A program made the translations under genes and the position numbers. From the NCBI GenBank assembly GCA_050950765.1, contig JBMNIF010000003.1, positions 448,001-512,000 on the forward strand: a stretch of 64,000 bases of DNA, given 5' to 3'. The notes below the pieces were generated by a model. The model made no database searches and was not told where the DNA came from. It saw only the letters and a list, made by a program, of their open reading frames with translations. The DNA comes from Bdellovibrionota bacterium. Its GTDB lineage: Bacteria; Bdellovibrionota_C; UBA2361; JAAYZI01. This document shows, one piece after another, positions 22,485-44,357 of this stretch. Each line of letters begins with the position of its first letter. The first letter of the stretch is position 1.

Positions 22485-23294
22485 ATGATTTATCGTATTC
22501 TGGAAAATATATTTATACTTTGTATAATTTCTGTGGTTTTTTTAGGTGTTTGGGCATTTTATATAGAACCAAATATGCTCGCAGTTACAAACTACAAGAT
22601 CAAAGATAAAAATTTAAAAGGGATAAAAATTGTTTTAGCTGGTGATTTCCATGTTGCACCTAATCAAGAAAAACGTTTACAGAAAACAGTCCAAAAAATA
22701 AATGATCAAAAACCTGATCTAATCTTATTAGTTGGTGATTTTGTATCGGGGCATGAACGAAAAATGACTCTGTCTGCTGAGGCTATTGCAAAAAATCTTG
22801 CTAATTTAAAGGCAGAGTATGGAGTCTATTCAGTTTTAGGAAATCACGATTGGTGGATAGATGGAGAGGAGGTAACACAAGAGTTAAAGAAAGTAGGGAT
22901 AAATGTTCTCGCAGATTCAAACATGACCGTAAAGATTAATGACAAAGTAGTTTACATTGCAGGTGTTGAAGATCTATCGACAAGGAATTCAGATATTCAT
23001 TCTGCACTGAAGGGAACAAAAGATCCAACGATTTTATTATCACATTCACCTGATATCTTTCCAGAAGTTCCAGCAGGTGTAAATTTAACTGTGGCAGGGC
23101 ATCTTCACGGTGGGCAAATTCGATTTCCATTTATAGGATTTTTATTTATACCGTCAAAATATGGCGAAAGGTATATTTATGGATTATTTGAAGAGAACGA
23201 TAAAAAAATGATCGTTACAAAAGGTGTAGGTAACAGCATTCTGCCATTCCGCTTTAATTGCAAACCTGAAATTGTAGTGATTGATTTTGAATAG
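22485..23294 (+). CDS. Metallophosphoesterase (YkuE/YaeI-like)
   Basis: DFH, GDFV, GNHD, SHSPD and GHLHGGQ motifs. Confidence 0.9.
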   Translation: MIYRILENIFILCIISVVFLGVWAFYIEPNMLAVTNYKIKDKNLKGIKIVLAGDFHVAPNQEKRLQKTVQKINDQKPDLILLVGDFVSGHERKMTLSAEAIAKNLANLKAEYGVYSVLGNHDWWIDGEEVTQELKKVGINVLADSNMTVKINDKVVYIAGVEDLSTRNSDIHSALKGTKDPTILLSHSPDIFPEVPAGVNLTVAGHLHGGQIRFPFIGFLFIPSKYGERYIYGLFEENDKKMIVTKGVGNSILPFRFNCKPEIVVIDFE

Positions 23295-23304
23295 GACTTG
23301 TCAT

Positions 23305-23495
23305 TGGTGCCACCCACCAGTACGACCTGCCATTTCGCAGCAGCGGTTTTTGATTTTGATGATTTTTATAAAGAAAATGGTGTTGATGCTCTGTCAACAC
23401 AGGGCGCAGAGCAGATATAATCACTTTGTGGGTGGCACCAGTTTTACCCCCGTAAAAACCTAGCCGATCCGCTTTGCAGTTCCAGCCCGCCCTAG
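23305..23495. repeat. Inverted core pair enclosing a 108-bp duplicate of 44145-44252, followed by an A module
   Basis: TGGTGCCACCCAC at 23305 and GTGGGTGGCACCA at 23428; 23330-23437 is identical to 44145-44252. Confidence 0.9.
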
Positions 23496-23540
23496 CGTCC
23501 TTGAATCCTTTTCAATTTTATAAGCATCTAAAATTTAGCT

Positions 23541-23567
23541 TTAGTTTTATTACCGTTCTGCCGAATA
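23541..23567 (+). promoter_or_regulatory. Possible sigma-28 promoter for the flagellin-like gene
   Basis: TTAG-N15-GCCGAATA versus consensus TAAA-N15-GCCGATAA. Confidence 0.35.
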
Positions 23568-23691
23568 CATTAGCAAGGGAGAGCTCTTGTATTAGGGAAG
23601 TACAAAAAGAGAGCGCACGGATGCAAAACTTTTTATATAAAAACAGCTATCAACTCAAAGCCTCCATACTTAACTGTGACGGAGGTCTGCC

Positions 23692-25680
23692 ATGAGTACA
23701 ACTATCGGAAGCGTTATTACAGGTTCTTTCATTAACCTTTTTGGAAAATCCACTTCTAAATCTAAACTTTCTCTAAGCCCCCTTAGTTCAGGCGACAACA
23801 AAAAAGATGCAGTTGATTTTTCTACAAATCTAAGAAGCGGAGCTTCCGTTTATAGTAGAGCTATTAAAACCATCTCTTCAGGCGCTGGATATATCAACTT
23901 AGCTAAAGATACCTTGACTAAATTAAGTGATATCACAGACAAACTCATCACATTGGCAGAAAAAGCCACAAAAACTAGCGGAACAACCTCATTACGCAAG
24001 TTAAATCGCTCTTTCCAAGATCTCGCTGACGAATTTAACGATCTAGTAGATAATGCAGATTTTGGCGATCGTGAATATTTAACCATAGAAGGGCTAGAAC
24101 AACTCTTCACTGACATCGGACTCTCTACCAAAAATTCACGCGACTTAGCCACTTTATTTGACAACTTTATTATTGCAAATAAAGACTCTGACAAAACTCT
24201 CGCTAGTGAAATGATGAAACAAAAAAAACCGAGTCAGATACCATCAACTGCCTTTAGCAGCACTATTAATAAACCTTACGAAACACACCTTGCTCAAAGT
24301 ACAACAACATCCGATCCAAACATAACAAACAGCGCCGGATTTATTTCTTCCGTAAATACGGTGACACAACGAAATAACGCAACAGACCCCACCATTACAG
24401 AAATCACTTTCACCTCTGCAGAAACAGCTTCAGAAAACACACTTCAATACTCAGCAGGGACTACTTTAAAAACCATTTCACAATCTTCAGGCTACTCCGT
24501 AATTGAATCTACAGACGATCTAATTCTTGGTCAGAATACTTCCAACTATAAACAACTTTTCCTAATAGATGCTTCAGGAACGGTGCTGCACCAACTCACT
24601 AACATGACAGAATCAGTTTCCTTCGGTGAGGTTGCTATCAGCGACACTAATGACACTATTTACAGTTATGCTAATGCTACCACTACATCAGTGGTAAAAA
24701 GCTCTTTTTTAACAGCAGGCTCCGACCCTGCTACAAATATTGAAACAGATATAGAAAGCACCTCTTTAAGCTCTGATTTAAGTCTCTTTGACAATATAAA
24801 GATCAGTGCGGACGGTAGCTATTTAGCTTATCGTTCAAATACAAGCGGAACTTGGAAAACTCACCTCAAAGATTCTGAAACATTAACTTCTGATACAACC
24901 TTAGAAAATAACTCAGATATAACAAATTTCGGATTTATTGCTAACGATACACTAGCTCTGATTCAAGGCGTAGCAGGCAATCAAACGATCTCTTATTACA
25001 AAGATGGTTCAGACAATTTAAAAACAGTAGCGAGCGCCTTAAATATCGGACACTTTTCTACTGTGCAAGCAGATACAAGCAAAAAAAGCTTCATCTCATA
25101 TACCAGTAATGACATCTCGAGTTATAACGATCTCTACGTCATTGATGAAAAAGGCAATAACATTACTACCTATGATTTTGAAGCGAGTGATAATATCAGC
25201 AACTTCAGCATTGCAAGTAATGAAAACGGACTACCACGAATCGGGCTCTTCGGAACCCTCTCTGTAAATGGTGATACAGACTCAGAGATGTATCAAATAG
25301 ATATTTCAGGAGGACCTAAAAACATTAAATACACTACTAATGTTTCAAGACCTTTAAAAATATTTAGCAGCACATTTAGTTTATCTAACCGCGCCTCTGG
25401 TTACGTTGCTCTTGATGATCTAAAAGCTATAAAAAAACAGATCACAGAAAACCTTGAAAATCTCGATAAGATCCTAGATGTAATGCAAGAAAACGTTGAC
25501 CTCGTTCGCGCCACAGGCTTAGCTATGTTAGAAGTTGCAAACAAGATCACAAGCTACGATGATGCCGAAAGTGTTGCCAAATCACTCCGCTTGGAGATCT
25601 TAAAAACAGCTCCAACCCTACTTAACCAAGTCCACAACTTGGAACCTTTAGCATCAGCAGCCCTGCTTTACGAAGACTAA
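23692..25680 (+). CDS. Divergent flagellin-like protein with a large central insert
   Basis: N-terminal (LADEFNDLVDNADFG) and C-terminal (ITSYDDAESVAKSLRLEIL...LLNQVHNLEP) helical regions match flagellin D0/D1 by eye; S/T-rich beta-type middle. Confidence 0.65.
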   Translation: MSTTIGSVITGSFINLFGKSTSKSKLSLSPLSSGDNKKDAVDFSTNLRSGASVYSRAIKTISSGAGYINLAKDTLTKLSDITDKLITLAEKATKTSGTTSLRKLNRSFQDLADEFNDLVDNADFGDREYLTIEGLEQLFTDIGLSTKNSRDLATLFDNFIIANKDSDKTLASEMMKQKKPSQIPSTAFSSTINKPYETHLAQSTTTSDPNITNSAGFISSVNTVTQRNNATDPTITEITFTSAETASENTLQYSAGTTLKTISQSSGYSVIESTDDLILGQNTSNYKQLFLIDASGTVLHQLTNMTESVSFGEVAISDTNDTIYSYANATTTSVVKSSFLTAGSDPATNIETDIESTSLSSDLSLFDNIKISADGSYLAYRSNTSGTWKTHLKDSETLTSDTTLENNSDITNFGFIANDTLALIQGVAGNQTISYYKDGSDNLKTVASALNIGHFSTVQADTSKKSFISYTSNDISSYNDLYVIDEKGNNITTYDFEASDNISNFSIASNENGLPRIGLFGTLSVNGDTDSEMYQIDISGGPKNIKYTTNVSRPLKIFSSTFSLSNRASGYVALDDLKAIKKQITENLENLDKILDVMQENVDLVRATGLAMLEVANKITSYDDAESVAKSLRLEILKTAPTLLNQVHNLEPLASAALLYED

Positions 25681-43182: not shown

Positions 43183-44235
43183 ATGATAAGCATAATAATT
43201 ATAGACCAAGGAAAAGGTGTCTTAGGGCGAAGAGGGGCAATGGATGCTATGCGTTCCGTTATCCCTGCTGATACAAATATCAACAGTCTAGATAATTCTA
43301 ATATTGAGCGCTTACGCGCTTTAGTATCAGAGATGAAAGATGAAGAATTAATTTTGTTCATCAACTCTAACGCCACAAAAGATCTAGTTGCAATGAAAAG
43401 GATCGTTGATGAAGCTACTGCAAAGCACAGTCATGAGATCATGATTGCTTCATGTATGGCTGATAATGATGAGATTAAACTTCCCAAACTAACACCATCA
43501 CACCTTGTTAGTGGTGTTTCTGAGTGTGATTTATGGCCAATAGGTTGTATCGCAGTACGTGCTTCATTTTTACATGCACACTTACGAACGGAAAAATCGA
43601 TCTCTGAGATCTTAATTTACTCTTTATGCGATGCGGGAATGAACAACATCCCGATCAAAACTTTCGATAGTCAGGTGAAGCTTAACCACAATCTTGACGA
43701 TGAAATTTGTATGATGTTTGCCGAACAACGTGCACGTTTATTGAATTATGTCGTTAATTCTTGCAACATTGAAGAGCTTTTTCCAAACCATCCTTGGAGC
43801 AAATACGAAACAGAATCTGCAGCAGCAAGTTATCAAACTTTAGCTGCTATATTCTACAAACTAGGAGATATTCAGGATGCCAAAGAGTGTCTCTCTTTGA
43901 GTGATAAACTTGAAGAGAGTCCTAGATCTTTAGCGCTTAGAGCGCTAATTGCAATGGATAATGGCGAAGCTCTCGGTGCTGTTGCTAACCTTATTTCAAG
44001 CTTGCAACGTTATGAGGTTAGAAAACGTAATGACAACGAAGATCATTATTTAACTTTCACTCCTCAAGATTTAGAAAAGATTAATGAACACTTAAATCAA
44101 GGACTGGAAGCTTTAAATCAACAAAACAATGTAGTTGCAGCGCACCATTTCGCAGCAGCGGTTTTTGATTTTGATGATTTTTATAAAGAAAATGGTGTTG
44201 ATGCTCTGTCAACACAGGGCGCAGAGCAGATATAA
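43183..44235 (+). CDS. Hypothetical protein with a C-terminal TPR-like region
   Basis: ATG after GAGGG; the ORF track starts at 43120. Helical TPR-like C-terminal half. Confidence 0.65.
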   Translation: MISIIIIDQGKGVLGRRGAMDAMRSVIPADTNINSLDNSNIERLRALVSEMKDEELILFINSNATKDLVAMKRIVDEATAKHSHEIMIASCMADNDEIKLPKLTPSHLVSGVSECDLWPIGCIAVRASFLHAHLRTEKSISEILIYSLCDAGMNNIPIKTFDSQVKLNHNLDDEICMMFAEQRARLLNYVVNSCNIEELFPNHPWSKYETESAAASYQTLAAIFYKLGDIQDAKECLSLSDKLEESPRSLALRALIAMDNGEALGAVANLISSLQRYEVRKRNDNEDHYLTFTPQDLEKINEHLNQGLEALNQQNNVVAAHHFAAAVFDFDDFYKENGVDALSTQGAEQI

Positions 44236-44240
44236 TCACT

Positions 44241-44347
44241 TTGTGGGTGGCATTAGTGCCACCCTTCAGGGATGACAGAGCGGGCATCGATTGCAGAACG
44301 GATTAGCCAGATCTTCACGGAGGTTAAAAAACTAGTGCCACCCACAA
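44241..44347. repeat. Miniature element: one A module inside 17-bp inverted repeats
   Basis: TTGTGGGTGGCATTAGT ... ACTAGTGCCACCCACAA (1 mismatch). Confidence 0.8.
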
Positions 44348-44357
44348 GTTAAAGCCC

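Follow-up and report, generated by a model that had tools for sequence, protein, structure and literature searches.

A transposase-less shell of a Y1 HUH element that appears to hold the tail of a host gene

The locus at 23.3 kb of the window (the whole stretch of 64,000 nt that was analysed) is, judged from its sequence, a non-autonomous, transposase-less shell of a mobile Y1 HUH element which holds the tail of a host gene. Its structure points to a real, Pack-like shell of a TIR-bounded Y1 element that was loaded by one long-range capture. The anatomy can be read directly from the letters; the steps of the capture we infer. For these steps we favour, with a probability of about 0.55, a transposase-mediated capture into the right end of the element, followed by collapse through exchange within 8 core bases.

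Anatomy of the 23.3-kb locus

The captured fragment (23330..23437, plus strand) and positions 44145-44252 are identical in 108/108 nt, exactly as the original prediction had stated, and the match cannot be extended on either side; in base-shuffled windows the longest direct repeat reached only 15-17 nt (5/5 shuffles). The fragment had also been described correctly as the 3′ end and stop of the 43183-44235 gene plus the adjoining core. It comprises one codon-final base, the last 29 codons, the TAA stop (44233-44235 in the donor), a further 9 nt and then 8 nt from the start of a core, inside which identity breaks as described (GGTGGCA/CC versus GGTGGCA/TT). Both junctions recur in independent assemblies (see below).

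Inverted brackets of 13 bp surround the fragment (23305-23317 and 23428-23440), as predicted, but they are not generic cores; they correspond to the two ends of a Y1 element, on the right by best match. The left bracket lies in the downstream (right) end of this transposase element (23295..23330, minus strand), which consists of 15 nt inside the end, the core at 23305-23315 and a short outer tail, and which shares base 23330 with the fragment (1-nt overlap). This 36-nt module matches all six element ends and is present at 12 sites in the genome, 11 at the six transposase loci plus the 23.3-kb locus. It folds as a small hairpin of -5.4 kcal/mol (single fold, without shuffle control). On the right, a hybrid core (23430..23440, plus strand) is seen when the copy is compared with both the donor and the upstream end of the transposase element. 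The end of identity had been taken to indicate where the crossover lies. As the 8 nt GGGTGGCA (23430-23437) are common to donor and element, it gives the right limit only, and the crossover can be placed no more closely than in this 8-nt window; truncated cores have no peak at 8. The hybrid core is followed by a module of about 65 nt from the upstream (left) end of the element (23441..23505, plus strand; identified by BLAST), which lacks the outer core, a truncation also seen in the module-end survey. Its top three non-self BLAST matches, of 358, are modules at three transposase upstream ends (85.5-86.8%), and because the module is that common the right-side assignment is less specific than the left one. 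Right end and left-end module thus surround host-derived DNA with the transposase absent, which identifies 23295-23505 as a putative element shell.

To the left of the shell lies an intact host metallophosphoesterase gene of 269 aa (22485..23294, plus strand; Pfam Metallophos, E 1.1e-14). Its stop at 23292-23294 comes before the shell, and a fusion with the fragment is therefore ruled out. To the right follows a flagellin-like gene of 662 aa (23692..25680, plus strand; Pfam Flagellin_N, E 2.8e-6). The hexamer TTGAAT is found on both sides of the shell (23284-23289, 23501-23506) and may be a target duplication, an insertion overlap or chance.

An ORF at 23298-23423 keeps the donor frame behind a possible start codon after AGGA (41 codons). 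The copy on C1 described below has a corresponding ORF of 43 codons at C1:302.76-302.89 kb, also after AGGA, and the peptide of both ORFs takes in the conserved F..A.F.FD.FY stretch of the donor family. Chance could give such ORFs in both copies, and the captured fragment is, as far as its sequence tells, most likely a passenger without function.

The core repeat and its Y1 HUH transposase

The 11-bp core has the consensus GGGTGGCACCA and occurs in 943 exact and 140 one-mismatch copies in the genome, compared to 12-19 in shuffles. Neighbouring cores are mostly in direct orientation (879/908 pairs), and the arrays, with about 1,000 cores, total 88 kb. Among 91 genomes of the order, none of the others exceeds 37 exact cores. 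According to a position profile of the 1083 cores the GTAG tag is absent, and about two thirds of them have AA before the core and cannot close a hairpin.

Host DNA was copied together with a core, as had been proposed, and the suspected HUH transposase is present as well: a 322-aa protein encoded in six copies at six loci, with 0-14 differences in 969 nt (98.6-100% identical). Each copy has outward-facing cores at both ends; a target duplication is not evident by eye at any of the six. The protein passes the Y1_Tnp model PF01797 (29.8 bits, cut-off 23) and stays under the cut-off of the RAYT model NF047646 (67.4 bits, cut-off 80), and among PDB entries E. coli TnpA-REP matches it best (4ER8, E 5e-5). 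It displays the motifs NHFH (60-63), W100, YIYINP (121-126) and SS (142-143), with both HUH histidines and the tyrosine invariant in 25/25 aligned homologs. Its C-terminal tail is long and conserved in the order, and matches none of the Pfam HTH models Bac_DnaA_C, HTH_23 and HTH_28 at E 0.1.

Homologs of the transposase are found in 71/91 genomes of the order; a GTDB scan yielded 26 pattern matches, none of them confirmed. Full flanks were available for 20 of the 24 homolog loci retrieved; outward TGG-type inverted ends were present at 8 of these 20, compared to 14/380 cross-pairs, 5/1000 shuffles and 0/20 direct-orientation controls. Furthermore, in the genome G025 the same core bounds two 1.3-kb copies which are 94% identical and whose similarity stops 5-11 nt outside the cores. 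Together with the inverted cores at the transposase copies, these ends and the G025 pair mark the core as the outward-facing terminal repeat of the element, which has apparently run away in the genome under study.

Some further arrangements around cores were observed. Two places of the genome (C2:8905-9318, C2:891.4-891.9 kb) have, behind a right-end core, an additional copy of the 3′ end of the transposase gene, followed by short reiterations of the end tail. Another genome (G019, 92%-complete; loci L061, L062) has 37 exact cores, often as divergent pairs, without a Y1_Tnp match, possibly orphan repeats. At a locus of another family (L060, G025:C106:1-3500) gene pieces are duplicated at 89-92% between four same-strand cores; these are presumably pieces of toxin-antitoxin-like genes.

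The donor gene and its breakpoint

The fragment is the end of a conserved 350-aa gene (43183..44235, plus strand) with matches in 24/31 genomes, G000 (the genome under study) among them, and the 44-kb copy is therefore the donor. In the Atlas the protein has GT2/TPR clusters as neighbours at 0.91-0.92, and its TPR matches in Pfam fall under the cut-off; a GT2-like fold with a TPR-like C-terminal half may be taken from these models as a lead only. The copied stretch (44145..44252, plus strand, assigned by sequence identity) runs into the donor array (44245..44354), in which back-to-back cores (44245-44255, plus; 44254-44264, minus) are followed by a module and a third core (44333-44343, minus).

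The 5′ breakpoint of both copies of the fragment falls into a cryptic half-core, GCACCA (44142..44147, plus strand), which corresponds to the outer half of the core. It is the only GCACCA/TGGTGC in the 1053-nt gene, so that the chance of such a break is about 0.003 (a post hoc estimate). With the 1-nt overlap, the junction is readable as a donor cut C/C joined to an element end cut after C.

This breakpoint bears on the main rival of the favoured reading, namely that host gap repair filled the same shell. The element would have been nicked or excised by its own transposase, its broken end would have primed on the donor core via 8-nt homology, and the gene tail would have been copied and rejoined by the 1-nt overlap, with the enzyme never touching the donor. 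Abortive gap repair has been proposed for plant Pack-MULEs and Ds fillers. The homologies of 8 nt at one junction and 1 nt at the other fit such a repair, which we regard as possible; a far end in the gene's sole GCACCA is left unexplained by it.

Two observations in relatives concern the same gene. A transposase homolog is located directly upstream of the donor ortholog in G020 (L009, G020:C109), and a core-like GGGTGGC follows the stop of the ortholog in G001 (L008, G001:C200); chance is possible in both cases.

A second, decayed shell on C1

A third copy of the fragment, absent from the original prediction, was detected at C1:302849-302641 (210 nt, 95.2% identical to the donor). It has the same 5′ end as the 23.3-kb copy and spans the whole donor array to 44354, while the 23.3-kb copy ends at 44252. 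No difference to the donor is present in the first 104 nt and 10 are present in the next 106 nt, 8 of them in cores. A decayed upstream (left) end with matching polarity follows 1.9 kb away (C1:300870-301050, L064); both of its inner cores are altered, while the intervening module and the outer core are nearly intact. The right end has one core only, with 1 mismatch. From this layout, the C1 copy sits in what appears to be a second, decayed shell.

When 16 nt are removed from the left junction of the 23.3-kb locus, it matches the left junction on C1 over 8 nt (25 lengths tried; next best 4 nt). Thus one capture accounts for both, and a single capture probably best explains the two fragment copies. 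A capture junction shared by two loci would require one move of the loaded shell, which may thus be able to transpose as a unit. In relatives an empty site was not found, and synteny was absent at either recipient (4 and 3 loci compared).

The C1 copy weighs differently on the rivals. The selective damage of its cores (8/10 differences within 31/210 positions, probably two clustered events) is in line with host repair, which in turn leaves a longer copy through the whole donor array unexplained. The focused damage could also represent nicking scars or selection immobilising the shell. The original prediction had instead considered one-ended or rolling-circle HUH transposition; an IS91/Helitron-like form of it would run from the donor core to a terminator-like site in the gene. 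An HUH enzyme and the copying of host DNA adjoining a core would suit this process, as would the six element copies, at which no target duplication is apparent by eye, and the cryptic site could act as terminator. Nevertheless, the gene-internal far end is common to the fragment copies, and the core end varies (44252 versus 44354). One-ended transposition of the IS91 type would produce the reverse, a fixed element end and a variable far end. The enzyme matches Y1_Tnp and has no Y2_Tnp match at E 0.1 (a negative Y2_Tnp search of the whole genome, in which the control was silent too, carries no weight here), and the ends are inverted repeats, whereas IS91 has a distinct ori and ter (PMC13181058). 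We therefore consider a rolling-circle origin improbable.

Between the C1 shell ends lies a 401-aa gene in transposase polarity (C1:301298-302503, L064:4299-5504), a possible whole-gene cargo of this shell. Its product is helical-repeat-like without a Pfam family; paralogs are located at C1:260.6-264.4 kb, and the gene is lineage-restricted, with one weak match among 90 other genomes. Both shells sit just upstream of flagellar genes (23692-25680; C1:303045 onward), possibly by chance; the operon on C1 presumably contains flgF/flgG-like genes. A third shell is possible at C1:385471-385635: a left end of the transposase type is present there with its cores intact, together with part of the promoter region (82%), but no transposase accompanies it.

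Recovery of the junctions in independent assemblies

The junctions were checked in contigs of 4 runs from 4 studies (of the 24 runs listed), none of which was flagged as a possible source. In two of the runs the left junction is covered by contigs that enter from unique DNA and stop 30 nt inside the fragment; the X5 contig shows 0 differences over 1352 nt and the X16 contig 16 over 1113 nt. Contigs that start 30 nt inside the fragment carry the right junction in X5, X6 and X10 (3/4 runs). Overlaps of 30 nt would be expected at a branch of a 31-mer graph and are one below the 31-nt threshold for bridging. Donor and C1 junctions are carried by loose contig ends, with C1-specific junction letters in X5 and X10. 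Furthermore, the depth of the shared fragment contig is about threefold that of the flanks (X5, 25.7 versus 8.4-8.9; X6, 27.5 versus 10).

Spanning reads had been suggested as a check for both loci. Each junction does recur independently, while no contig among those listed spans the whole fragment, and the pairing of left and right junction therefore relies on the G000 assembly. For X16, the rows listed do not include the right junction, and a metagenome scan with 32 nt of the fragment gave 0 matches. The 30-nt overlaps, the lack of a spanning contig and these two results speak for an assembly artefact or junctions mispaired across a three-copy repeat. Against such an artefact, which is highly improbable, stand the left junction in 2/4 and the right junction in 3/4 independent runs, one of them a divergent strain, as well as the C1-specific letters and the threefold depth. 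A misassembly is thus unlikely. The missing cover over 23490-23806 in X16 was not read as an empty site. As X16 differs by about 1.4% in the neighbouring gene and nevertheless has the left junction, the capture predates the split of that strain, and the term "recently", used in the original prediction, is not supported.

Cores and gene-end duplications across the genome

It had been suggested that further captured fragments end at cores and that captured DNA becomes a new module of the library. The whole genome was searched for pieces of ORFs (mechanical ORFs of at least 120 aa, multi-copy ORFs dropped) in non-coding DNA, resulting in 70 local matches, which are not independent of each other, and 90 distant matches in 27 groups. 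Only 6/70 local gene-end duplications end within 30 nt of a core, against a background of 12.6%, and one of the six is a module overlapped by an ORF end. Local captures were consequently rejected as support for a core-driven process. As read from the list of distant matches, the donor fragment stands alone in being at least 60 nt long, coming from a single-copy gene and lying clear of IS ends and contig ends; the capture is thus a one-off. The fragment itself has only 2 extra copies, and the route into the module library is not supported. A 39-nt piece between divergent cores (C1:47653, 90%) was also considered as a capture and is more likely a remnant left in place. We take this piece to be lemA-like and the gene that follows to be htpX-like.

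Local tandem duplications of gene ends are unusually many in G000 and mostly far from cores (70 matches; e.g. C1:298.9-299.5 kb, C2:905.2-905.9 kb, C3:338.9-339.8 kb, C4:17.2-17.8 kb). With 64/70 far from cores, host repair alone can copy gene ends here. This frequency, independent of cores, speaks for the repair alternative, as do short reiterations and fillers immediately 3′ of cores. Other core-adjacent junctions join a core plus about 5-13 nt to arbitrary upstream sites, some with filler, and a common dinucleotide was not apparent by eye. Among 249 module ends 74 cores are truncated, with breaks at all positions from 0 to 9 (16, 6, 3, 17, 3, 10, 9, 4, 3 and 3) and without a peak. Modules switch within 0-2 nt of a core in 81/151 downstream and 60/121 upstream cases; the exchange thus occurs at or close to cores, but because the cores are identical its exact place cannot be fixed.

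Proposed history of the capture

Under the favoured transposase-mediated capture, the enzyme would be bound at the donor array and cleave DNA in single-stranded form at the cryptic GCACCA, at a distance of about 100 nt. The 5′ end thus freed would be linked to a 3′ end that lies within the right end of an element, 15 nt inward; the 1-nt overlap is compatible with a C/C to C/T strand transfer. The product would be an element carrying the gene tail and the donor array to 44354. Its C1 form would have lost 16 nt between two CCA triplets and survived with decayed cores, while the 23.3-kb form would result from exchange in the 8 nt shared by the donor core and the left-end core of the element, with loss of the intervening DNA. 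The donor gene is intact, so that copying from a displaced strand or a sister chromosome is implied.

The six transposase copies, the Y1_Tnp match, the 12-site right-end module, the polarity on C1 and the break in GCACCA count for this history. Against it, there is a single event; the left junction, 15 nt inside the element end, misses the core, which does not make for a clean exchange from core to core; the far end of the C1 fragment (44354) is not at a core either; core truncations have no single cut position, and no empty site was found in relatives. For related enzymes comparable reactions are described: E. coli TnpA-REP carries out strand transfer and cleaves at C/T at distances above 400 nt from its site (PMC3333891), and with a GTGG guide the cutting of a Marinomonas enzyme was shifted to CC (PMC8266576). 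GTGG is also present in the core, which we regard as a lead only.

Significance and comparison with known systems

Sequestration of gene fragments by RAYT/REP systems is already published. Set against the main texts of the REP-system papers, long-range cargo inside the own ends of a mobile element is new; no account of host cargo inside TIRYT ends was found in the mostly open-access literature covered. Judging from this locus, an element of this kind is able to transport host DNA to a distant site; in the genome concerned the enzyme has reached six copies, alongside about 1,000 cores in arrays totalling 88 kb. Its weight is limited by one event, the absence of signs of function and the fragment captures of RAYT/REP relatives already in print. 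For TIR-associated Y1 cutting it supplies substrates and predictions, i.e. the 11-bp end, the site at 44142-44147 and candidate C/C and C/T cuts.

With considerable doubt, this widespread family of TIR-bounded Y1 elements with enzymes of 320-340 aa may be viewed as bacterial Pack elements, which cut host genes at cryptic half-ends (GCACCA), load pieces or whole genes, move, and lock in by destroying their inner cores. If this were true, the C1 shell would have brought in the 401-aa lineage-restricted gene, and from the ORFs of 41 and 43 codons the conserved peptide at the C-terminus of the donor protein could be produced. As in plant and animal Pack-MULE/Pack-TIR elements, element ends surround a host-gene fragment and the transposase is lost. 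Pack-MULE and Pack-TIR elements use DDE transposases and make target duplications; here the enzyme is a bacterial Y1 enzyme acting on single-stranded DNA, and the shell is not multiplied beyond two. Helitrons, too, capture adjacent host DNA. With IS91/ISCR the system shares HUH chemistry, movement of adjacent host DNA and no evident target duplication, but enzyme family (no Y2 match) and end structure differ, and fixed and variable ends are reversed (PMC13181058).

REPtron/BIME systems (PMC2817692, PMC3333891; Corneloup 2021, PMC8266576) likewise show mosaic arrays around a short motif, sequestered gene fragments and cuts far from the bound repeat. Examples are fragments of codA-cynR in E. coli (Ton-Hoang 2012, PMC3333891) and 3′ ends of the transposase gene captured between REPs (Nunvar 2010, PMC2817692), the latter resembling those at C2:8905 and C2:891.9k. 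Unlike these systems (RAYT groups 2 and 3), the GTAG-tagged palindromic REP is absent among the 1083 cores, and instead of a single-copy, non-mobile transposase six near-identical copies exist.

By analogy, the element probably behaves as TIRtrons do (TIRYT; Di Nocera et al. 2013, PMC3733652). Quentin et al. 2018 (PMC6006769) treat this group as identical with TnpA-Y1 subclass 2.1, and it also corresponds to RAYT group 1, in which duplications are more frequent than in any other group of true RAYTs, at a rate of about 6% (PMC5581495). For subclass 2.1 an association with prochlorosin genes was reported and later qualified by the same authors (bioRxiv 2020.03.09.984088). As in TIRtrons, a Y1 HUH enzyme with NH[YF]H, W, Y---NP and SS motifs is encoded between inverted repeats that are not GTAG REPs and that form a genome-wide family. 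In contrast to TIRtrons, the Pfam HTH tail is absent and the core GGGTGGCACCA does not fit GGGGWSAS, the TIR motif of some TIRtrons only; 943 exact cores, mostly in direct arrays, are opposed to TIR families called "moderately abundant". The enzyme has 322 aa compared to a median of 238 in subclass 2.1, and its six copies are 98.6-100% identical compared to a subclass mean of 1.9 copies and 49% identity (PMC6006769). The SS motif and the lack of a long core insertion lean towards 2.1, while length and multi-copy state resemble 2.3 (PMC6006769). Lacking GGGGWSAS and the HTH tail, and being longer and more mobile, the element is thus TIRYT-like rather than a member of subclass 2.1.
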